From Promethearchaeota archaeon (lineage in GTDB: Archaea; Asgardarchaeota; Lokiarchaeia; Sigyniarchaeales; SOKP01), in contig JAHPZE010000046.1 in NCBI GenBank assembly GCA_019058365.1, forward strand, positions 1 through 23,892: a DNA stretch of 23,892 nt, read 5' to 3'. Below are positions 1,540 through 22,439 of the stretch, piece by piece. Below the pieces are notes generated by a model, which ran no database searches, was not told the DNA's origin, and worked only from the letters and a program-made list of their open reading frames with translations. Numbering within the stretch: position 1 is the first letter of the stretch; every line of letters begins with the position of its first letter. The position numbers and the translations under genes are program-made.

Positions 1540-2190
1540 ATGACAATAGAAGAAAAAATAAAAGAATTAATCATAGAGTGGAATGAAGATGGATTAAAAG
1601 AATTATGTCGTAGCATTCTTGAAAGTAATGAAGCTACACCAGCAGAATTATTGAAAATTATTGGGAAAGTAATGCAGTTTATAGGCAAACAGTTTGAAGA
1701 TGAAGAAATTTTTCTTCCAGAATTAGTTGGTTCAGCAAATGTTGTAAAAAATGTAATTGATGAGATTTTAGACCCCGCGATTAGGCAATCAGGTGGAACT
1801 AAAGAAACCCTAGGAAAGGTAGTAATAGGGACTGTTGAAGGAGATGTTCATAGCATAGGAAAAGATCTTGTTGGAAGCTTTCTTTTTTCTAACGGATTTG
1901 AGGTATTTAATTTGGGAGAGGAAGTTGCAGCCTCCGTATTTGTAGATAAAGCAGAGGAAGTTGGAGCCCAAATTATTGGTCTGTCATCTTTATTAACAAT
2001 GTCGATGGGATTTCAGCGAGAAGTTATAAAAGAGCTTAATAAGAGAAATTTAAGGGAGAAATATAAAGTAATTATTGGAGGGTCTCCGACCTCCATTGAG
2101 TATGCTGATGAAATTGGTGCTGATGGATGGGCTGATGATGCTATTGAATCAGTTAAGCTAGTAAAAAAATTACTTGGAGTTAATAATTAG
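1540..2190 (+). CDS. Corrinoid (B12-binding) methyl-carrier protein, MttC/MtbC-like
   Basis: N-terminal helical cap with FEDEEIFLPEL, DxHxxG motif (GDVHSIGKDLV), GLSSLLT, IIGG and IGADGWA; lies 14 bp upstream of an MttB homolog. Confidence 0.92.
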   Translation: MTIEEKIKELIIEWNEDGLKELCRSILESNEATPAELLKIIGKVMQFIGKQFEDEEIFLPELVGSANVVKNVIDEILDPAIRQSGGTKETLGKVVIGTVEGDVHSIGKDLVGSFLFSNGFEVFNLGEEVAASVFVDKAEEVGAQIIGLSSLLTMSMGFQREVIKELNKRNLREKYKVIIGGSPTSIEYADEIGADGWADDAIESVKLVKKLLGVNN

Positions 2191-2204
2191 GAGATGATTA
2201 TCAA

Positions 2205-3731
2205 ATGAAATTAAAAAGAATTGAAGTTCTCTCAAGTGATGAAATACGAGCTATCAATTCTTCGACTTTAACAATTCTCACAAAAGTGGGAATTAAAATA
2301 GATTCTCCCTCTGCCAGAACTTTATTAAAGAAAAATGGAGCAGAAGTTGATAATAATAGTCTCTATATTAAACTACCAGAGTCTTTAATTAAGGAAAAAC
2401 TAAAAGAAGTTCCAGATTCCTTTAAATTGCATGGACCAGATGGCAAATTTAATTTTGAGGTGAATACCACTTCCACTCAATTTGCTACAATTGGAACACC
2501 AGTAAAAATTTATGACCCAAGTAATAAGAATGGTGTTCGAAAAACTGTTTTAGCAGACACAATCAAGCAGATTAGGATTGTTGATTCTTTAAAAAATATA
2601 AATTGTTCTCATGTGGATGTCTGGCCTAATGATATTAATTATCTCTCCCTTCACGCTCATTGTATTTATCAATGGGTTCATAATACTCGAAAACCCTATG
2701 GACTTGGATGCTTAGGAAGAGTTGCAAGCCAAGATATGATGAATATGGCATCTATCATAGTTGGAAGTGACGAGGAACTCATTAAAAATGCTCGCTTTGT
2801 CGGGTTCATGAACCCTACAAGTCCTTTGCACCTCCCTCAATTAATGACAAATGGTCTTGAAATTTTTGCTAAATATAAGCAACCAACAATAATCGCTCCA
2901 GAAGCATTAGCGGGATCAACAGCACCGGTGACTTTAGCTGGTTTGATAACTCAAATCAATGCAGAAATCATTGGAGGAATAGTATTAGCCCAACTATATA
3001 ATTCTGGAGCTCCTGTATTTTTTGGTACAGTTTCTACCATCACAGATATGAAATCTGGGAATGCCGCATTAGGTTCAATTGAAACAGGACTTATTACTAC
3101 TGCAATTGCTCAAATGGCTCGTTATTATAGCATACCTTCGAGAGGACCTGGTGGTATTACAGATTCCAAAGTACTCGATGTCCAATGTGGGTTTGAAAGA
3201 TTACAAACATTATTAGTTTCTGCACAAGCCGGAATAAATTATATCACTTGTGCTGGAACTTATGAGGAAACATTGATAGAAGCACTAGAACTCCTTGTAA
3301 TTGATGATGAGTTAGCAGATATTATAAAACGTTTACTTAAAGGGGTTAATGTAAACGAAGATACAATTGGGTTAGATGTTATAGAAAAAGTCGCTTTAAG
3401 TCAGAAAAAGGGTGTAAATTACTTAGGTGAGGCTCATACTCGTAAGTTCATGAAAGATGAACTATTTATACCTTCTCTAATTGATAGAAATCGACGTTCT
3501 ACATGGCGTAAAAAAGGATCAAAAGATATAATTGCTAGAGCTGGAGTGCAGGTTGAAAAAATTCTCCAATCATTTAATCCTCCCGAAGTTGAAAATGAAA
3601 TTGAAACCAAACTTTTAAATTATATAAAAGAAGTTGAAAGTAGAACTCTAGAATATTATAAAAAAGTAGAAGGGATATCTGCAGGAACGGTATCTCTCCC
3701 AGGTACAGAAATAAATGTTAAAGATAAATAG
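2205..3731 (+). CDS. Trimethylamine methyltransferase (MttB) superfamily protein, non-pyrrolysine
   Basis: 508 aa with motifs NPTSPL, LAGSTAPVTLAG..Q.NAE, TDMKSG, TDSKVLDVQCGFE, LVIDDE and YLGEAHT. No internal TAG. SD-like GGAGATGA upstream. Confidence 0.9.
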   Translation: MKLKRIEVLSSDEIRAINSSTLTILTKVGIKIDSPSARTLLKKNGAEVDNNSLYIKLPESLIKEKLKEVPDSFKLHGPDGKFNFEVNTTSTQFATIGTPVKIYDPSNKNGVRKTVLADTIKQIRIVDSLKNINCSHVDVWPNDINYLSLHAHCIYQWVHNTRKPYGLGCLGRVASQDMMNMASIIVGSDEELIKNARFVGFMNPTSPLHLPQLMTNGLEIFAKYKQPTIIAPEALAGSTAPVTLAGLITQINAEIIGGIVLAQLYNSGAPVFFGTVSTITDMKSGNAALGSIETGLITTAIAQMARYYSIPSRGPGGITDSKVLDVQCGFERLQTLLVSAQAGINYITCAGTYEETLIEALELLVIDDELADIIKRLLKGVNVNEDTIGLDVIEKVALSQKKGVNYLGEAHTRKFMKDELFIPSLIDRNRRSTWRKKGSKDIIARAGVQVEKILQSFNPPEVENEIETKLLNYIKEVESRTLEYYKKVEGISAGTVSLPGTEINVKDK

Positions 3732-8893: not shown

Positions 8894-9499
8894 TTAATAA
8901 TCTTTCAATATCACGTTATCTTCTTCTTCGTTTGTTATTTCATAATCAGGATAAAAACTTTGACATTCTCTAAACCCTGCCAATATTATTACCATTGAGA
9001 TAAAAATAATCCCAATATAAACAAACCACTCAAAATTTTTTGAAATAAATCCATGTTCCCAAAGTTCATAATAAGAAAAAGTAAGATCACCGGTCACACT
9101 ATAATGTCCTGGAAGCATAGTGATAGTTGTACTTTTGGTAAACTCTTGAATAGATAAGTAATAATTAAATGTATATATGGTACCTGTTGCAGAATGTGTG
9201 AATGCAATTGACCCAGATCTATATCCCTCTCAAGTATTAAACACTATAACATCATACTTGTTTTGGATAAGATCGTTTTGTGGGAGTGTAAAACTACCTC
9301 TACAGAACCAAGGTTCAATCACACAAAGTTGCGATTTCCAAATTCTTTCTGTATTTAAGAGAGGTACAAATATAAACGGTACTATCGAGAGTCCAACACC
9401 AATAATAATAATTATTAGTCCAATTATATGGTGTTTTTTCAATCTTTTCAACTTTTGAGTCAAGGTTAGTATCTTTTTGTACAAGTCTTTAATAATCAC
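8894..9499 (-). pseudogene. Two-TM membrane protein (about 200 aa) interrupted by a single in-frame TGA at 9230-9232
   Basis: Track ORFs 9230..9499 and 8894..9118 are in the same frame. The intervening 37 codons (EGYRSGSIAFTHSATGTIYTFNYYLSIQEFTKSTTIT) are open. The joined product has an N-terminal TM, a beta-rich middle and a C-terminal TM. Confidence 0.65.
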
Positions 9500-9961
9500 C
9501 TAATATTACTTTAAGCTTTTATTGAATGTTCTACCTAGATTTGTTTGTAATTCAGAATTTTTTTTTAGATTTCTTTAAAGCCTAATTAATAAAAAGTTAA
9601 ATTAGTATAAAATTTTTAGGATCAAACTTTTTTTAAGTCTAATTTTTCTCGAAAAAAGGAAGATTGTAGAGAAATTTCTTTATTAGAAGTAAATTTAAAT
9701 AATTAAGCGAGAAATTAAACATTAATAATTAAGAAGAAAAAGATGTGATTTAAGGTAAGATATCCAAATAAAGTAATCGAGTTAGTTAATAAACTCCCTG
9801 AGAGCCACTCTGGTTTAAAAAAGCTCCTTAAAAAAAATTATAAAAGAATAAATTTTGATAAATTAAAACCTTTTAATCCTAAAAGTGAATTAATAGAAGT
9901 ACAGAATTTTTATAAGCAAGTAATTGAAGAGATTCTTTTATCAAGTCCAGAAGCCTTAGAA

Positions 9962-11644
9962 TTGCTTAAGAATTTGTCAGTTTTAAACACAGAGATAGAC
10001 ACCAATATTGATTTAAAAAGTATTAAAACTTCCTATAAAGTTCCAAATATCGAGAATTCATTCAATCAATTATTGAATATGGGTTTTATAAGAAAAAAAG
10101 AAGGTAAAGAAGAAATATATGAATTTTCCTTTCCAGAAATTAAAGATGTTTTAGAAACCTTAGCTAATGAAAATAATCATGAAAGAGCTATAAAATACTA
10201 CAAGAATAAAAAAAAGAAATGGAAAGTTGACATTTTAGATGATATCGAGGTTCTTTTTCATAAGGCAAAATTAAATCCGACTCATGGATTAGTTGATGAA
10301 TTTTTAACAATTGCCAATAATATAGAACAATTTGATTTTAGACATAAAAGATTGATTGATGTTGCACAAGAATTATTTATACTTGAGGATAAATATAAAG
10401 CTCCAATTCTAATCGTGCTTGGAAATTTATTATCTGTTGTAGGAAATCCTGAAACTGCAGAGAGAATCTTTCTTAATGCTTTAGATATTTACAAAAATTT
10501 GGCGAAAAAATATTATAAAATATATCTACCCTATATTGCAGCAACTCAAAAAAACCTAGGAACACTATATATAGATTTAAAACGGTTTGAAGAGGCAGAA
10601 AAAATATATAGCGATGCTTTAAGTTCATACAAGGAGTTAGAAAGACAGTATTATGATGCACATTCACCGGACTTTCATTCAACGGAGGATAATGGGATAA
10701 AAAAGTCATATATCGATGAATTGAAGTCATATAATGAGTTATTAAAACGATACTATGATATATATCTACCCAACGAACCCCCGATTACAAGTGAAATTGG
10801 CAATATAGGTGTTGATCTCGACTTATTAGAAGATATTCAAGATGGAACCATTGATTCTATAGAAAGTTACAAAACACTAGCTAAAATGTCTTATGATATG
10901 TATTTACTCGATATTGCTAAAACTCAGAGTAGTCTTGGACTCATCTATAGTGAATTAATGAGATTTGAAGAAGCAGAAAAGATGCATCTCGAAGCATTAA
11001 AACTCAAAAGAAAAGTTGCAGAACATTATCCCGATCAAGCTCTACCTGAGTTAGTTCTAACATTAATAGATCTTGGTGATTTATATGCTAGCTTAAATAA
11101 ATTTGATCATGCAGAGCCATTGTTTAAGGAAGCTTTAGAAATTTCTCTACAATTAGCAGAACAAAATCCAGAAGTATATTTATTTAACGTTGCTATTATC
11201 CAGAACTCCCTTGGAACTATATATACCAGATTACAGAAATTTGAAGAGGCTGAAAAAATGTATGTTGATGCCTTAAAAATTTTTAAAAGTTTCGCACAGG
11301 AAGACCCTAAAGCATACAATTTTAACGTTATTGATGTTCAGAACAACCTTGGTTATTTGTTTTTAAATAAAAGAAATTTTAATAAAGCTGAACATTATCT
11401 TAATAAAGCGTTGAAGAAAGATCCTATGAATAGTGAAATTTTGTATAATCTCGCTTCTCTTGAGGCACTCAGAAATAATCAAACCAAAGCTTTAGAGATA
11501 CTAGCAAAAGTAATAGAACTTGATAATAATTATGTTGAAAGAGTACTACACGATGAAAAACTTGATTGTCTTAAAGACTTGAAAGAATTTAAAGAATTAA
11601 CGGGTGAGAAAAGTTCCAACAATTACGCTAAAAAAAATAAATAA
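9962..11644 (+). CDS. Tetratricopeptide-repeat protein with an N-terminal winged-helix-like region (frame open upstream to 9749)
   Basis: Repeated A..QNNLG.LY....RFEEAE..Y..AL.IY..LA units; terminal YNLA...A......AL..L..VI.LD......V..DE.LD.L cap. The same frame has no stop from 9749. Confidence 0.85.
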   Translation: MLKNLSVLNTEIDTNIDLKSIKTSYKVPNIENSFNQLLNMGFIRKKEGKEEIYEFSFPEIKDVLETLANENNHERAIKYYKNKKKKWKVDILDDIEVLFHKAKLNPTHGLVDEFLTIANNIEQFDFRHKRLIDVAQELFILEDKYKAPILIVLGNLLSVVGNPETAERIFLNALDIYKNLAKKYYKIYLPYIAATQKNLGTLYIDLKRFEEAEKIYSDALSSYKELERQYYDAHSPDFHSTEDNGIKKSYIDELKSYNELLKRYYDIYLPNEPPITSEIGNIGVDLDLLEDIQDGTIDSIESYKTLAKMSYDMYLLDIAKTQSSLGLIYSELMRFEEAEKMHLEALKLKRKVAEHYPDQALPELVLTLIDLGDLYASLNKFDHAEPLFKEALEISLQLAEQNPEVYLFNVAIIQNSLGTIYTRLQKFEEAEKMYVDALKIFKSFAQEDPKAYNFNVIDVQNNLGYLFLNKRNFNKAEHYLNKALKKDPMNSEILYNLASLEALRNNQTKALEILAKVIELDNNYVERVLHDEKLDCLKDLKEFKELTGEKSSNNYAKKNK

Positions 11645-12077
11645 AATTACTTTGATGTCAATTTTACAATTAGATGTTAAGCCTGAGCAAAGAAATTTAA
11701 TTGCTTCTAATGCTAAATCAATAGCAGAGGCTTATTTCAATAAGGATGCTTGGTTCAGAGCGATTTATGCAGATAATATACCAGTTGGATTTGTAATGAT
11801 TAGTGATTCCTCATTAAAGTATAAATCCAATCCAAATCATAAGCCCTCCTATTTTCTTTGGAGATTTATGATTGATGCTAAATTTCAAGGAAAAGGATAT
11901 GGTAAAGATGCAATGACCTTAGTAATTAATCATGTTAGAAACAGGCCATACGCAAAAGAACTTCTATTAAGTCACAGCAAATCAGATGGAAATGCGGGAG
12001 AATTTTATAAAAAATGTGGTTTCGAATATACTGGTCGCGAAATAAGTGATGAATTGTTAATGAGTTTAAAATGGTAA
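11604..12077 (+). CDS. GNAT acetyltransferase (spermine/spermidine acetyltransferase BltD-like)
   Basis: LDVKPEQ..IASNAKSIAEAY, RAIY, LWRFMIDAKFQGKGYG (acetyl-CoA motif) and FYKKCGF. Overlaps the end of the TPR gene by about 40 bp. Confidence 0.88.
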   Translation: MRKVPTITLKKINKITLMSILQLDVKPEQRNLIASNAKSIAEAYFNKDAWFRAIYADNIPVGFVMISDSSLKYKSNPNHKPSYFLWRFMIDAKFQGKGYGKDAMTLVINHVRNRPYAKELLLSHSKSDGNAGEFYKKCGFEYTGREISDELLMSLKW

Positions 12078-12160
12078 AATATTTATCAATTACTTTAATT
12101 CTAATTTTTCTTCATAATTAAAGACTTACTTGGTAAATGAAGTTTCTAATTTAGATGATA

Positions 12161-13297: not shown

Positions 13298-14974
13298 TTA
13301 GTCCTGAATCTGCTTCTTCTTTATATATATAGAAATAACTATGATGACTCCTAAAAAGGTTCCAGTCAATAATATTGTAATTTGAAAGCCAGGAATTTTA
13401 GCTTCCACAATATTAACTAGTATTGAAGTTTGTTGAACATTGTTAGCTTTATCTACCGCAACAGCTGTAATATTATGTGTTCCACTTTTATATATTAATG
13501 TATTTAAGCTAAATACTACCTCGGGATATGGATAATATGGAGGCATTAATTCTTCTTTCAACAATGTTCCGTCAAAATATATTTGAATTTTATCAAGGGC
13601 TTGATCATCGTCTCCTTCTACTATAATATCAACGATACCTTTTAATCCCGCATTCGCATTTGGATTTGTAATTATTACCGTAGGATCAACATTATCTACT
13701 GGAGCAATTCCATCTTCATTAATACCTACTCGAGTGGAAATAATTTGACCACGTCTTCCATCCACATCTTCAACAAAAAAGGTAAGTATATAGTCAGAAT
13801 CAAGTATTGGGGACATGATCTCTACTATTCCAGTAAAATTACCATTCCCATCAGGTGTTAATTCCCATTGATACAAATTTTCATTCACATCCCAAAGTCC
13901 CATTGATTCATTATCTCTCGGTTCTGGGGGTGTCCAATCTTCAGATATTACTCTACAAATCACACTTGCAATGTCTGTTGAATTATCAACTCCTACAGCA
14001 ATTGGAAAAGTTATTAATGCGGGATTATGTGCCACCCAAAATTTTAATGGAACAAACAGGATTTGTGGAGCCTGAATCAAAATAGGAGGACATCCTTGAC
14101 ATAAAAAGGTATTTTTTGCATCATTTCCATCTCCTGTACTCGGAAGTTGTCCCCAAGCATTTACTATATGTCCCATCCCATCATGATTATCATCAATACA
14201 TGGTCTTTGCAATTCTCCGTAACCCAAAGCTTTAATCTCATTATTAGCATCCACGAAAGCATCTCCAATGGAATTTCCTGCAAGAATAGATTTAAAAAGA
14301 CCTTCTCCAAACATCGAAATATGGGGTGGGATTGGACTCCAATATGCGCTATAATAAGGTTCAGTTGAAGTCATAATTATTCTATCCGATTTACTTAAGT
14401 CATCTAAGAAAGTTCCAGAAGAACATGCTTCATAAATAACAATTATCCGATCACATCCAGAAGCAGTTTCAAAACCATCCAAATATTCATCAAGCTCCCA
14501 AGCAGCTAATGAGGAAAAAGGAGCCATTGACATTGCATTGGTTCCTCCATGATCATGTAAATAGACTGCTAAAATTCCATTTGGACCAACCTTACTTGGT
14601 GCCCATGTATTGAATGCATAATCTAAATTTGGGCGATAAGTAGCCCCATATTCCCGGTCAGTGTATGAGACCGAATATAGTGGAACTAGCATTAATATTT
14701 CATCTTCAGTATTGCCACATGCTAATGCTTGATCATAGACCCATTCACAGGTCAATAATACTAAATCCCATGCATCATGATTTGATTTATCTCCCCCGAT
14801 AATGATCCACGCATCTATACACTCGTATTGAGCAGCACTAGCTTTAACTGAAATGTCGGAATTAGTGTCAAATTGGCTATAACTCATATTTCCACCAGAA
14901 TTTACCAACCAATATTGAAAATTAGAGAGAATAATATAAGTAAGTAGAATTAATCCTAACTTTTTTTTATCCAT
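13298..14974 (-). CDS. Secreted C13 family (legumain/GPI8-like, caspase-fold) cysteine peptidase with an Ig-like domain and a C-terminal IPGF-TM-basic sorting signal
   Basis: Signal peptide; His in VYLHDHGG and Cys in VIYEACSSGTF; RIIMTST; QRPCIDDN; Ig-like PTVIITNP..GIVDIIVEGDDD..GTHNITAVAVDKANN; tail KIPGF + TM + KKK. Confidence 0.8.
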   Translation of the reverse strand: MDKKKLGLILLTYIILSNFQYWLVNSGGNMSYSQFDTNSDISVKASAAQYECIDAWIIIGGDKSNHDAWDLVLLTCEWVYDQALACGNTEDEILMLVPLYSVSYTDREYGATYRPNLDYAFNTWAPSKVGPNGILAVYLHDHGGTNAMSMAPFSSLAAWELDEYLDGFETASGCDRIIVIYEACSSGTFLDDLSKSDRIIMTSTEPYYSAYWSPIPPHISMFGEGLFKSILAGNSIGDAFVDANNEIKALGYGELQRPCIDDNHDGMGHIVNAWGQLPSTGDGNDAKNTFLCQGCPPILIQAPQILFVPLKFWVAHNPALITFPIAVGVDNSTDIASVICRVISEDWTPPEPRDNESMGLWDVNENLYQWELTPDGNGNFTGIVEIMSPILDSDYILTFFVEDVDGRRGQIISTRVGINEDGIAPVDNVDPTVIITNPNANAGLKGIVDIIVEGDDDQALDKIQIYFDGTLLKEELMPPYYPYPEVVFSLNTLIYKSGTHNITAVAVDKANNVQQTSILVNIVEAKIPGFQITILLTGTFLGVIIVISIYIKKKQIQD

Positions 14975-17477: not shown

Positions 17478-18371
17478 TTACTTTATAACATAAACAAGTT
17501 TTTGTCCTTCCTGTTCTTCAAGCTTTAACTCTCTCCTAATAGCATTTCGTATCAAATATCCTCCAACATGCAATATAGAATCTCCGAGCATAAAATCTTG
17601 GTCCATTGAGGCATTACAAGGATAAGCATGATGAGCTTTACTTATTCTTTCGTTCAGAGAAAGATTTTTACTTTTTCCATTTTTGAAGTACTTAGATTTT
17701 AGTTGTTGGCAAACATAATATGTGCTTCCGCATGGAGCACTTTGAATGACACAAGTATCTTCAATTGATTCCCCATCCTTACTTAATAAAAATGAAACAA
17801 TTGGTTGCCCAATTTTAAAATAATCTATAAATTCATCAATAAAATCATGTTTACGTGTTAAATGAAAACCAATTTTATTATAATCATTTAAATCTTTACT
17901 TAAGGAGCAAAAAGGTTTAGGAAAAGCTGCTTGAATACCAAATTTTTCGAATTCTTTTAAGATCATTGATTGCAATCCTGAAGGCACCCATTTTGGATCT
18001 TCAATTGGAACTATAACAGCTTTAATACTTTTATCCATGAGATAATTAGGAAGATCTAAAAGTAAATCTTGATGGATACCTACGACTAATAAAAAATCGA
18101 CGGGTGGCAAAATCTTTGGTAGATATTCCGTTGAATCTTCAACAAATTCAGGAATATTTTCTCCTACTTTTTCAAAAAAATAGATTGAGTTGGCAAAACT
18201 CTTTATATACTCACGACATTTATCGCATTTTACATTTTGTTCTAAATCTTCGCAAGCTTTACAGAATTCCTCATTATTAATGAGATTGCCAACAAACTTT
18301 TGAGTTAGCATCTCAATCTCTGTTCCGATGCCGTAAAGAACTCCTAGTTTATACTTTTTCTCAATCAACAT
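17478..18371 (-). CDS. DUF166 family protein
   Basis: PEFVED...LP, GIHQDL, PKPFCSL, SAPCGSTYYV, HHAYPCNASM..D...LH.GG; extra C..C......C..C segment near the N-terminus. Confidence 0.7.
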   Translation of the reverse strand: MLIEKKYKLGVLYGIGTEIEMLTQKFVGNLINNEEFCKACEDLEQNVKCDKCREYIKSFANSIYFFEKVGENIPEFVEDSTEYLPKILPPVDFLLVVGIHQDLLLDLPNYLMDKSIKAVIVPIEDPKWVPSGLQSMILKEFEKFGIQAAFPKPFCSLSKDLNDYNKIGFHLTRKHDFIDEFIDYFKIGQPIVSFLLSKDGESIEDTCVIQSAPCGSTYYVCQQLKSKYFKNGKSKNLSLNERISKAHHAYPCNASMDQDFMLGDSILHVGGYLIRNAIRRELKLEEQEGQKLVYVIK

Positions 18372-18468: not shown

Positions 18469-18924
18469 TTAATCCTCAAACACAGCCATCGTACTTTTAC
18501 TCTCTCCCACTCTGACTAGAATCTTTTTATTATTATATATTTCTTTTAGTTTATCATGAATGTATTTTGCTAAAAGTTCGCTTGTTGTGGCTGGTAATGG
18601 CAAAAAGAAAACATCTTCTCGGGGGAAAACGTACCGTTTCTTAGATGCCACAACTTCCACACAATCTTTCTCTTCTCGTATATCTATGTCGTTTGATTCT
18701 TTTGGTATCAAAACATAATGATCCATAGGCTTAACAATAGAAAGTAATTTACTCTTAAGATCTGTAAAATCTACAACAAAATGATTTTCATCAAGATCAT
18801 CACTTAATTCAACATGAACATAATAGTTGTGACCATGAAGTCTTGTACATTGAAGAGGGTCTTTTAAGAAGTGACTAGCACTAAATTTAATTTCGGTTGA
18901 TTCAACTATGACTTTAAATCCCAT
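18469..18924 (-). CDS. queD: 6-carboxy-5,6,7,8-tetrahydropterin synthase / PTPS family
   Basis: FSASHF, CTRLHGHNY (catalytic Cys and Zn-binding His), VVDF..LK, DH, TTSELLA, VGE; divergent from a queC-domain gene. Confidence 0.88.
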   Translation of the reverse strand: MGFKVIVESTEIKFSASHFLKDPLQCTRLHGHNYYVHVELSDDLDENHFVVDFTDLKSKLLSIVKPMDHYVLIPKESNDIDIREEKDCVEVVASKKRYVFPREDVFFLPLPATTSELLAKYIHDKLKEIYNNKKILVRVGESKSTMAVFED

Positions 18925-19104
18925 AAAAAGAGTTCCCCCATTGTTATTTTATTGGTTTGATTTTTTTGTATTGAAGTAGACCTTTGGTATTTTTATATTT
19001 TATGTTTAAGAACAATAAATATTGCAAGACATTTTCATTAAAGCAAGATATATTAAATTAGTAAGATAACTTCAATAAAAAATAAACCATATTTTAAAAT
19101 AGAT

Positions 19105-20715
19105 ATGAGTTTTACCCTTTATGACAAATTTAAAGATGATCATACAATGGAATACAAAAAATTAGCAATTACGGGAGCAAATGGATATTTAGGGAAGCAT
19201 ACAATAAAGGCAGCGATTCAAAAAGGATGGCAAGTAGTAGGCATTGTACGACGAGATGATGCAGCTAAAGAAGTGGAATCTCTTGGGGCTAAAGTAGAAA
19301 TTATTAAAGATTTCAATCTTGATTCTTTAAAAAGTGCTTTTGCTGGGTGTAAAGCAGTTTTACATTTTAGAGGTGTTGTATGTGGTTCTGAAGAGCTTTT
19401 CGAAAAGGTTAATATTGATGGAATGCGCGTTTTAGTTGAAGCTGCTCTTGAAGCAAAAGTGTCTAGAATAATTTTTCCTTCAGGTTTGGGAGTTAATCGA
19501 TATGGGGAAGAAGAATGGGCCAATGATGCATATTTCTATTCAAAGAATAAAGCTGAACAAATACTTAAAAATGGAAAAGTTCCTTACATAATTTTTAGAC
19601 CTTCTTATATATTAGGCCCTAATGATGAATTAATCCCAGAAATGATAAACCAAATTGGAAATGGGGTTGTCCACGTTGCTGGAAATGGTAAAATTCCAAT
19701 GCAACCTATATACATTAAAGATGCAATAGAAGCATTTCTAAATGCGGCTGATGGTATAGGAGATAACAATCAAACTTTTGATCTCGTCGGTCCAAAAATT
19801 CTAAACATGCTTGAATTAATCGAAATGGTTGTTCAAAATATGATTGATTTAGGATTTAATATCCCTCGTCCTCGAATCAACATAATAAAATTTGAAGATG
19901 CTCCAGAACAATTAGGGATATGCAAAGAAATGGTTGATGTTATGAGATGTGATATTACCTCAAATGGTAATATTGCTGCTAAAGTGTTAGGTTATAATTT
20001 ATCAGATTTGGATGAAGCTATAAAATCAGCAATAATGGTAAAAATGTTTCCTGAAACCAAAGAAAAAGGAGAAAAAGCTATTGTTCTATTATCTGGTGGG
20101 ATTGACTCTGCTGTTGTGCTCTACTGGGCAAATAATAAGGGGTATAATATAATTCCTATTTCATTTAATTATAATTTCCGACCGGAAAATGAAAAAAAAG
20201 CAGCTTTAAAACTAGCAGAAAGTTTAGATCTTAAAGTAATTAAAATTGATATCCCTTTTTTAAAAGAATCAATTGATTTACGCATAGAGGGTCTTCCTAT
20301 CCCGAGCGCATTGTACGCTCCAGAGGGATTTATACCTTCTCGTAACCTCATTTTCTACTCCATTGCAGCGTACTATGCTGAAGCTTATGGTTGTAAAGTA
20401 ATAATCGGTGGACACATATCAGCTGACCCTCAGACTTTTCCTGATACAGCACCAGATTTTTTTGAATCTCTTGAGGGACTGATTAATGAGGGAAAGCACA
20501 TAAAAGATAAGACAAAAATAAAATTATTATTTCCTTTAGCAAAAAAGACTAAAATAGATGTATTAAAATTAACACAAAAATTGAATATTCCTTTGAAATG
20601 GACATGGAGTTGTTATAGTGATGGAGATCAACCTTGTGGAATGTGTACATCTTGTCGTAAGAGAAAGGAAGCTTTCCAAAAACTGAATTTTTCTGATCAA
20701 GAATTTTCTTTATAA
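19105..20715 (+). CDS. queC: Fusion of an NAD(P)-dependent epimerase/dehydratase-type SDR (N-terminal, about 310 aa) and a QueC-like 7-cyano-7-deazaguanine synthase domain (C-terminal, about 215 aa)
   Basis: SDR part: ITGANGYLG, YFYSK, FRPSYILG, MQPIYIKD. QueC part: LLSGGIDS, IPSRNLIF, FPD, TWSCY......CGMCTSC..R. One uninterrupted frame; the likely start is ATG 19147. Confidence 0.85.
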   Translation: MSFTLYDKFKDDHTMEYKKLAITGANGYLGKHTIKAAIQKGWQVVGIVRRDDAAKEVESLGAKVEIIKDFNLDSLKSAFAGCKAVLHFRGVVCGSEELFEKVNIDGMRVLVEAALEAKVSRIIFPSGLGVNRYGEEEWANDAYFYSKNKAEQILKNGKVPYIIFRPSYILGPNDELIPEMINQIGNGVVHVAGNGKIPMQPIYIKDAIEAFLNAADGIGDNNQTFDLVGPKILNMLELIEMVVQNMIDLGFNIPRPRINIIKFEDAPEQLGICKEMVDVMRCDITSNGNIAAKVLGYNLSDLDEAIKSAIMVKMFPETKEKGEKAIVLLSGGIDSAVVLYWANNKGYNIIPISFNYNFRPENEKKAALKLAESLDLKVIKIDIPFLKESIDLRIEGLPIPSALYAPEGFIPSRNLIFYSIAAYYAEAYGCKVIIGGHISADPQTFPDTAPDFFESLEGLINEGKHIKDKTKIKLLFPLAKKTKIDVLKLTQKLNIPLKWTWSCYSDGDQPCGMCTSCRKRKEAFQKLNFSDQEFSL

Positions 20716-21602: not shown

Positions 21603-22439
21603 ATGGATATCCATAAGATAAAAAATAAAATGCTCCAAGATTTAAAGGAGCAAATTCCAGAACTTACAACGGATCAAATTCAAATTTCAGAATTACCTAG
21701 TAAGAAAAATTCTGTTATTATATTAAAGTTTGATAAAAAGCCCTCTAAATTACCACAAGAAGTTATAGTTAAAATTTTTAGGACTGAAAATATCGCTAAT
21801 GAAATAAATATATTAAACAGATTGCGAAATCAACATTTCCATGTTCCAAGTATTTTATTTTTTCATAATCCTTATTTATTCCTCGAAAAAGTTGAGGGTA
21901 CAAATTTATGCGATTTTATCAATGAAAGATTAAAAGGAACCAAGAAATTAGATGATTTGGATTCTGAAACAAGAAATCAAATTATTAATAGTATAGAAAG
22001 ACTGGCAGAATTTATTGCTCAATTTCATGAAAAAAATTTTGTTAGAAAAATGCATGAAGAAAAAAGGAAATATGTTCTTTGCAAAGGAGACACAAGGCTA
22101 AGGGATTTCATTTATGATTCTAAGCATGATGATCTGTATGCCGTTGATTTTGAGGATGCATACGAAGGTAATCATATGGACGATTTGGCTTGGATATGTA
22201 CTTCCCTTCTTGATACAGATCCAGGGATCTTTGAAATGGAGGAACCAAAACATAAGGTTGACCTGATAAATATCTTCCTAAGAAAATATTACCGAACTAA
22301 TCCAAAATTTCCTTTTGACTTTAATTATTTAGCAGAAAAGATAATAGATAATTTAAATATAGTTATAGAGAGGAGAAATCTTCCCTATGGTACTATCAGC
22401 AGAACTCTTTTTCTAGATGATATTTCTAAAGAAATATAG
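21603..22439 (+). CDS. Protein-kinase-like phosphotransferase (APH/RIO/Bud32-like fold)
   Basis: VIVKIF (beta3 Lys), NEINIL (alphaC Glu), FLEKVEG hinge, KGDTRLRD catalytic loop, AVDFED (DFG-like), DDLAW. Confidence 0.72.
   Translation: MDIHKIKNKMLQDLKEQIPELTTDQIQISELPSKKNSVIILKFDKKPSKLPQEVIVKIFRTENIANEINILNRLRNQHFHVPSILFFHNPYLFLEKVEGTNLCDFINERLKGTKKLDDLDSETRNQIINSIERLAEFIAQFHEKNFVRKMHEEKRKYVLCKGDTRLRDFIYDSKHDDLYAVDFEDAYEGNHMDDLAWICTSLLDTDPGIFEMEEPKHKVDLINIFLRKYYRTNPKFPFDFNYLAEKIIDNLNIVIERRNLPYGTISRTLFLDDISKEI

Follow-up and report, generated by a model that had tools for sequence, protein, structure and literature searches.

An SDR-QueC fusion encoded beside queD in Asgard archaea as a possible replacement for QueE in the archaeosine pathway

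The 7-deazaguanines include queuosine, archaeosine, toyocamycin-type antibiotics and modified phage DNA bases. To our knowledge every described route to them passes through QueE (7-carboxy-7-deazaguanine synthase), the sole enzyme known to contract a pterin to a 7-deazapurine ring. QueC ordinarily uses ATP and ammonia to convert 7-carboxy-7-deazaguanine (CDG) into 7-cyano-7-deazaguanine (preQ0), and next to it in the bacterial pathway acts QueF, an NADPH-dependent nitrile reductase of the T-fold. In some Crenarchaeota a QueC homologue is fused to a class II glutamine amidotransferase (GAT-QueC), and this protein has been proposed to carry out the last step, from preQ0 to archaeosine (G+) (PMC5699537). 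Here we describe a different fusion, found in a 23,892-nucleotide stretch of DNA (the window; contig JAHPZE010000046.1 of assembly GCA_019058365.1) from a Promethearchaeota archaeon, in which one open reading frame (ORF) joins an N-terminal short-chain dehydrogenase/reductase (SDR) to a QueC domain and lies head-to-head with queD. Like GAT-QueC, it is an archaeal fusion of a QueC-family protein to a probable second catalytic domain within the archaeosine pathway; unlike GAT-QueC, its partner is an SDR, no glutamine amidotransferase domain was found in it, the last step is covered in this genome by ArcS, and the gap lies at QueE. Full-text literature searches returned no description of an SDR-QueC fusion, as a sequence-only reading of the window had anticipated, and none of an archaeosine pathway without QueE; a 2026 survey of the PF06508 family makes no mention of an epimerase, dehydrogenase or NAD partner.

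The fusion ORF is single and uninterrupted and counts 536 amino acids from its first ATG; residue numbers below follow this form. Pfam comparison assigned residues 18-240 to Epimerase (PF01370, 2.9e-21), NAD_binding_10 (PF13460, 3.6e-19) and NmrA (PF05368, 2.5e-14), and residues 324-527 to QueC (PF06508, E = 1.5e-51), and the junction between the two parts reads through in frame with no stop. The sequence-only reading had claimed a complete SDR, a short linker and a complete QueC in one frame, with the motifs TGxxGxxG, VRR, YFYSK and SGGxDS, four zinc cysteines and a head-to-head queD 180 bp away. All of these were recovered where it had placed them, queD through its match to PF01242 at 180 bp from the first ATG of the fusion. 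Since most homologues are 522 amino acids long and begin at the second Met of the window ORF, the fusion probably starts at the ATG at nt 19147 (522 amino acids) rather than at the first ATG (19105).

A homologue search covering 5.8 billion proteins listed at least 120 SDR-QueC homologues at 52-89% identity. Nearly all of those listed are 515-570 amino acids long, carry both domain sets and were drawn from numerous independent assemblies under the names Promethearchaeota, Loki-, Thor-, Hod-, Hermod- or Odinarchaeota; public records label them plain 'QueC'. An exhaustive profile-free search added further fusions at 35-47% identity, together with standalone SDRs of ~300 amino acids (38-47%) and standalone QueCs (40-47%). 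The recurrence of the architecture in independent assemblies and in distant fusions rules out a chance stop loss or misassembly at the junction, which the initial reading had named as one way in which its proposal might fail. The other was that relatives might encode the two domains separately and unlinked, and this holds in part. All three standalone SDRs with readable contigs are followed, after 0-30 bp and in the same orientation, by a standalone QueC, and a metagenome scan yielded two further split pairs beside 11 further fusions. At five loci in total, then, SDR and QueC are separate but adjacent and co-oriented genes; an unlinked SDR occurs in genus g61, discussed below. SDR relatives under ~40% identity have no QueC nearby, and no split forms were found among 301 Thermoproteota genomes searched. 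A QueC tree joins fused, split and distant-fused sequences in one group (Shimodaira-Hasegawa-like approximate likelihood-ratio support 81), placed within a variant QueC type and well away from the canonical QueCs found in the same Asgard family. Because the split pairs are adjacent and the fused and split QueCs group together, SDR and QueC are, on this comparative evidence, a co-inherited module, present either fused or as neighbouring genes.

One set of distant fusions stands apart (L155, L159, L160; P0123, P0124). At ~35% identity and with LPDA in place of the YPDC motif of QueC, these always adjoin DUF6807 (PF14100), have no queD nearby and are possibly bacterial; in this group the SDR-QueC architecture may serve another purpose.

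In order to place the fusion in its pathway, the genome (estimated 100% complete, with 6.6% contamination) was inventoried for 7-deazaguanine genes. It encodes an MptA/FolE2-type GTP cyclohydrolase (200 bits), a TgtA of the archaeal guanine-15 (preQ0) type (447 bits, over cut-off) and ArcS-alpha (296 bits), and the presence of the last two makes ordinary archaeosine the expected end product. The fusion is the only strong PF06508 match, weaker matches being GMP synthase, LarE and NcsA, and it carries what is by this measure the only QueC of the genome. YhhQ and FolE were not found in the genome, and neither was QueE. The models TIGR03365 and TIGR04322 and an Asgard QueE profile all gave as their best match in the genome NrdG2, which scores over its own cut-off; the QGEG...CxxxCxxC signature occurs in no six-frame ORF of the genome, and its ten other radical-SAM (S-adenosylmethionine) ORFs match other families better than QueE. 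QueE was likewise not found in the closed fusion-bearing chromosome CP070831.1 or in two further fusion genomes. The archaeosine pathway of this organism thus appears complete apart from QueE.

Across relatives the fusion and QueE were seldom found together. Of 41 genomes sampled from the GTDB family, 12 carry the fusion, 15 a canonical standalone QueC and 14 no QueC. QueD was found in every one of the fusion genomes, in 13 of the 15 genomes with canonical QueC and in a single QueC-less genome, itself a carrier of queE; no QueD was found in sampled genomes that lack both a QueC and the QueE cassette. Two locus types occur in the family, type A (queC<->queD-queE) and type B (SDR-queC<->queD). 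An adjacent and divergent queD, for which the sequence-only reading had suggested a synteny search, recurs at 10 of 11 type-B loci from genomes and at six of eight fused metagenome loci. Among 400 Asgard genomes the SDR subfamily is found in 66, of which 64 belong to the GTDB family (genera g1, g4, g55, g56, g58 and g6) and two to a sister family. Within the family as a whole (135 genomes) the SDR occurs in 64 and the family QueE in 17, with both in one genome, G156 (Fisher p = 1.6e-4, a value overstated since relatives are not independent). G156 is an 86%-complete metagenome-assembled genome in which the fusion (L218, G156:C229:5710-7244) is frameshifted and the queC of a queC-queD-queE cassette (L219, G156:C242) is broken into two pieces; it may have been caught in mid-replacement, or may reflect mixed binning or faulty assembly. 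These distributions suggest that gain of the SDR coincided with loss of QueE, and that the SDR fills the place of QueE in the phyletic pattern. Mutual exclusion of the SDR-QueC module and the queC-queD-queE cassette in turn suggests functional equivalence and not an independent pathway.

G104, an Asgard metagenome-assembled genome, was considered as a counter-example with both the fusion and QueE, and was rejected because its QueE lies in a virus-like block at a contig end. The block (L224, G104:C7:54000-66316, especially 9001-12134) holds co-oriented genes for a bacterial-type RecA, an ATP-dependent DNA ligase, ParB and unknown proteins, followed by queD, queE, folE (PF01227) and a short QueC-like gene. 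The block resembles a gene cluster for DNA modification by 7-deazaguanines, whether viral, proviral or from a contaminating phage.

In a QueD tree the type-B QueDs make up one clade (support 96/86) nested among the type-A QueDs of the family. This nesting indicates that QueD stayed and that an imported SDR-QueC took the place of canonical QueC and QueE; by this phylogeny QueD is vertically inherited and SDR-QueC came in as a module. No other conserved neighbour was found that could serve as a third component, as the flanks of type-B loci vary between genera (DHQS-II, MoaA, GH57, DUF166 and a flavodoxin-like Fe-S protein). DUF166 was considered as a substitute for QueE, since it holds the slot that queE has in type-A loci, and was set aside since it occurs in 39 of the 41 sampled family genomes whatever the QueC type, genomes without any QueC among them. 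It adjoins queD only in genera g1 and g55. Relatives often have two or three DUF166 copies, and one copy in G159 contains an in-frame TGA.

Based on these patterns we propose that SDR-QueC, together with QueD, replaces QueE and QueC in making preQ0, and put the probability of this reading at roughly 0.4. If import of the module displaced both canonical QueC and QueE, then the role of the SDR is most likely the QueE step, carried out with the QueC domain and leading from 6-carboxy-tetrahydropterin (CPH4), the product of QueD, to a 7-deazaguanine. The fusion would be a bifunctional enzyme made of an NADP(H)-dependent extended SDR and an ATP-dependent, zinc-binding QueC, and with the divergent QueD it would form a two-gene unit supplying preQ0 for archaeosine; TgtA would place the preQ0 in tRNA and ArcS would complete the modification. 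We infer preQ0 as the product, the SDR as substitute for QueE, and the chemistry alike. QueE, with its Fe-S cluster and SAM, is not homologous to the SDR, an apparently NADP-dependent Rossmann enzyme, so that any equivalence between them would be one of function.

The SDR domain shows the conservation expected of an active enzyme. Among 33 fused and split sequences, and likewise among 76 fusions (35-89% identity), G24, N26, G27, G30, Arg49, Ser126 and Lys147 are invariant; Tyr143 and Arg50 are nearly so in fused and split forms alike, and the stretch Ser126-Gly-Leu-Gly, Glu151 and an FRPS motif are invariant or nearly so. This degree of conservation in the glycine motif, Arg49, Ser126, Tyr143 and Lys147 makes it probable that the domain is catalytically active. 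Arg49 and Arg50 follow beta-2, where an arginine is typical of NADP binders, and the domain looks to be of NADP(H) type, as the sequence-only reading had suggested. An AlphaFold2 model of the fusion (predicted local distance difference test score, pLDDT, 95.3; predicted TM-score 0.87) has the SDR and QueC domains packed together confidently, with a dip in pLDDT to ~82 in the linker. In it the ~300-residue SDR has the two-domain fold of an extended SDR, a Rossmann domain followed by a C-terminal substrate domain. A Foldseek search with the first 300 residues retrieved UDP-sugar 4-epimerases and NDUFA9 (TM-score 0.70-0.75, normalised by target length), the best PDB sequence matches were 9g83_P and NDUFA9, and a protein atlas returned generic 'epimerase/dehydratase' clusters only. 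The best sequence and fold matches over residues 15-313, namely the 39-kDa complex I subunit (9g83_P) and UDP-sugar 4-epimerases such as 6zlk, share with the window SDR the GxxGxxG, YxxxK and RPS motifs. They differ from it in that identity is just 17-22%, and that the window SDR is not part of complex I and is joined or adjacent to QueC.

The QueC domain combines canonical features with an altered pocket. Its match to B. subtilis QueC (PDB 3BL5) has an E value of 9.8e-18; in TIGR00364 it scores 149.6 bits against a cut-off of 150.3, and its Pfam score is far above the Pfam cut-off. In E. coli QueC the motifs YxQxHxxE (with an essential Tyr), VPxRN (with an essential Arg) and YPDC (in which the aromatic residue is required) matter for function, the zinc motif is C(x)8CxxCxxC with an essential Tyr following the first Cys, and the Y131F mutant keeps partial activity (PMC13329287). 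In 76 fusions the S, G, G, D and S of the SGGIDS PP-loop are invariant, as are all four cysteines of the zinc motif CYSDGDQPCGMCTSC, where the first spacing is x7 instead of x8; the Tyr after the first zinc Cys is present in the window and nearly invariant among fusions. VPxRN reads IPSRN, with Pro and Asn invariant and Arg nearly so. YxQxHxxE is changed to YNFRPENE (family consensus YxxRPxxE), so that Tyr and Glu are retained while Gln becomes Phe and His becomes Pro, and YPDC is changed to FPDT in the window and FPDA in most relatives, keeping the aromatic residue and losing the Cys. The domain thus shares fold and family, SGGxDS, VPxRN, the four cysteines with their Tyr, and linkage to queD with canonical QueCs (B. 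subtilis and E. coli; PF06508 cluster 1, PMC13329287), and differs from them by the added N-terminal SDR of ~300 amino acids, by YNFRPENE and FPDT, and by a genome in which no queE was detected. Standalone QueCs from Thermoplasmata, Nitrososphaerota and certain bacteria show these variant motifs too, and QueE was found in two of three tested genomes with such a QueC (G175, 138 bits; G176, 80 bits). The altered pocket therefore cannot serve as a general marker, either for a new substrate or for the loss of QueE; as variant QueCs coexist with normal QueE, it does not by itself imply a new substrate.

Several observations weigh against replacement of QueE by the SDR. We know of no biochemical precedent for contracting the ring without QueE. 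Type B arose only once, so few independent events stand behind the exclusion pattern. In the Nitrososphaerota genome G174 a PTPS/QueD gene, whose stop-to-stop frame reaches ~130 amino acids upstream of the PTPS/QueD domain, lies directly upstream of a variant QueC with FPDV (L050, 7169-8669), and neither QueE nor an SDR of this subfamily was found in that genome; lack of QueE hence does not need the SDR. Several radical-SAM proteins of the window's own genome are uncharacterised and have no firm assignment. NDUFA9, among the closest solved relatives of the SDR, binds NADPH and has no known catalysis. In genus g61 of the sister family (G543, G544; L220, L221) a standalone SDR, 39-41% identical to the window domain, is unlinked to the variant QueC and flanked by GH16 and trehalase-like glycosidase genes, and QueD and QueE were not found in these genomes. 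Finally, TgtA is present in 36 of the 41 sampled family genomes, including all five of one genus without QueC, QueD and QueE. That many relatives keep TgtA without preQ0 genes indicates that salvage is common in the family.

On part of this evidence a hidden QueE analogue, for example one of the unassigned radical-SAM proteins, would make CDG and the QueC domain would convert it to preQ0 in the ordinary way, leaving the SDR as an NADPH-binding accessory with a structural or redox-sensing role like that of NDUFA9 or NmrA, or with an unrelated side reaction. G174, the place of NDUFA9 among the top PDB relatives, the radical-SAM ORFs without firm assignment and the variant QueCs beside normal QueE in Nitrososphaerota and Thermoplasmata would all fit such an arrangement. 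It accounts poorly for an SDR that has kept its catalytic triad and NADP arginine with little or no variation across deep divergence, which is co-inherited with QueC whether fused or adjacent, and whose gain coincides with QueE loss; no conserved third gene lies near type-B loci either. We regard this explanation as unlikely.

The frequency of TgtA in relatives without QueC, QueD and QueE bears on a second explanation, in which a 7-deazaguanine that is imported after synthesis by neighbouring organisms or released by tRNA turnover (CDG, preQ1, or a 7-formyl or 7-hydroxymethyl form) would be redox-changed by the SDR and converted by QueC to preQ0, with QueD in some other role. It agrees also with G544, where a variant QueC is present and QueD and QueE were not found, and with the salvage of preQ0 by archaea stated in a review (PMC5699537). 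Set against it are the QueDs of the type-B loci, which form a conserved clade, are present in every sampled fusion genome and lie head-to-head with the fusion at most of these loci. There is also the finding that no YhhQ-type transporter was detected in the genome, and SDRs do not typically oxidise aldehydes to acids. Salvage or recycling of this kind seems to us improbable.

The sequence-only reading had the SDR tailor the product of QueC, reducing the nitrile to give preQ1 or a new base. We found no support for this, since TgtA and ArcS-alpha imply archaeosine and the module occurs where QueE is missing. Two versions of a different product can be set out. In the first, the SDR would reduce the nitrile or the acyl-adenylate to preQ1, a 7-formyl or another base; in the second, QueC would adenylate CPH4 and the SDR would reduce it, in the manner of a carboxylic acid reductase, to 6-formyl-tetrahydropterin, a tautomer of 6-hydroxymethyl-dihydropterin, thereby feeding pterin cofactors. 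The apparently NADP-type SDR has weak similarity to reductase domains (PF07993, 9.5e-08; the thioester-reductase domain TIGR01746, 1.5e-4), the substrate-side motifs of QueC are altered, and the DUF6807-linked fusions have no queD nearby, all of which would accord with reduction to another product. Carboxylic acid reductase-type enzymes combine adenylation, carrier and terminal thioester reductase domains, whereas the fusion is without a carrier domain and has its SDR at the N-terminus. The first version would still require CDG and hence QueE. QueF, also NADPH-dependent, has a fold unrelated to that of the SDR; no QueF (PF14489) match was found in the genome, and there is no sign that preQ1 is made or used. 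Both versions sit badly with an archaeal guanine-15 TgtA beside ArcS and with the exclusion between the module and the queC-queD-queE cassette, and many relatives do without the unit, which would not be expected of an essential cofactor route. A different product is, in our judgement, very improbable.

Returning to replacement of QueE, a chemical course can be drawn for it. SDRs classically carry out redox reactions on pterins (dihydropteridine reductase, sepiapterin reductase, PTR1). A transient NADP+-dependent oxidation of CPH4 would render C4a electrophilic, and the QueC domain, by adenylating the 6-carboxylate, would make C6-H more acidic. Together, oxidation and adenylation would permit the 1,2-shift and ring contraction of QueE to proceed in a polar form, to be followed by re-reduction and loss of ammonia and then by the usual amidation and dehydration of QueC to the nitrile. 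This mechanism is a conjecture, held with less confidence than the displacement itself. That QueD and SDR-QueC suffice to take dihydroneopterin triphosphate all the way to preQ0 without a radical-SAM enzyme, an NADP-dependent SDR and the adenylating QueC contracting the ring by two-electron chemistry, is a possibility we consider rather doubtful.

If QueE has been exchanged for a QueC-fused reductase, this would be a second route to the 7-deazapurine ring, oxygen-tolerant and free of Fe-S clusters, and of interest to enzymology and biocatalysis. Alternatively, Asgard archaea would hold an unrecognised salvage or analogue system. The naming of the fusions as 'QueC' is an annotation problem, as it would lead pathway reconstructions to misjudge whether archaeosine synthesis is complete. 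The features of the locus are collected in Table 1.

Table 1. Coordinates of the SDR-QueC locus in the window, with the basis of each assignment.
Feature	Position	Strand	Basis
SDR-QueC fusion ORF	19105..20715, probable start 19147	+	ORF list, Pfam, homologue lengths
Extended SDR domain, apparently NADP(H)-type	19147..20040	+	Pfam PF01370/PF13460/PF05368, motif conservation, Foldseek, PDB matches
SDR TGANGYLG	residues 23-30, nt 19171-19194	+	motif reading
SDR VRR	residues 48-50, nt 19246-19254	+	motif reading
SDR PSGLG, including the predicted catalytic Ser	residues 125-129, nt 19477-19491	+	motif reading
SDR YFYSK (Tyr143/Lys147)	residues 143-147, nt 19531-19545	+	motif reading
SDR FRPSY	nt 19594-19608	+	motif reading
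Inter-domain linker KMFPETKEKGEK	residues 313-324, nt 20041-20076	+	in frame; pLDDT dip to ~82
QueC domain, variant type	20077..20712	+	PF06508 1.5e-51, TIGR00364, PDB 3BL5, motif table against the PMC13329287 signature
QueC PP-loop SGGIDS	residues 330-335, nt 20092-20109	+	motif reading
QueC YNFRPENE (canonical YxQxHxxE)	nt 20170-20193	+	motif reading
QueC IPSRN	residues 410-414, nt 20332-20346	+	motif reading
QueC FPDT (canonical YPDC)	nt 20437-20448	+	motif reading
QueC four Zn cysteines	residues 503/511/514/517, nt 20611-20655	+	motif reading
queD, 6-carboxytetrahydropterin synthase family, CxxxHGH	18469..18924	-	PTPS PF01242 3.7e-22; TIGR03367 3.6e-20
Divergent intergenic region, AT-rich, TATA-like runs	18925..19146	.	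direct reading
DUF166 protein, Cys-rich, directly downstream of queD	17478-18371	-	PF02593 1.8e-47; weak match to DfsP (seleno)protein model

The window has a G+C content of 30%, and the intergenic region between queD and the fusion is presumed to be a promoter region shared by the two genes. Elsewhere in the window, positions 1540-3731 (+) encode a corrinoid-binding protein (B12-binding, PF02310/PF02607) followed by an MttB-family methyltransferase (PF06253, 8.7e-101) whose frame is uninterrupted, probably of the non-pyrrolysine type and acting on a quaternary amine. A legumain-like C13 peptidase with a bacterial Ig domain is encoded at 13298-14974 (-). Downstream of the fusion, at 21603-22439 (+), lies a gene for a small protein with a Bud32/Kdo-like kinase fold, and the split locus L007 has a similar kinase-like gene after its QueC.

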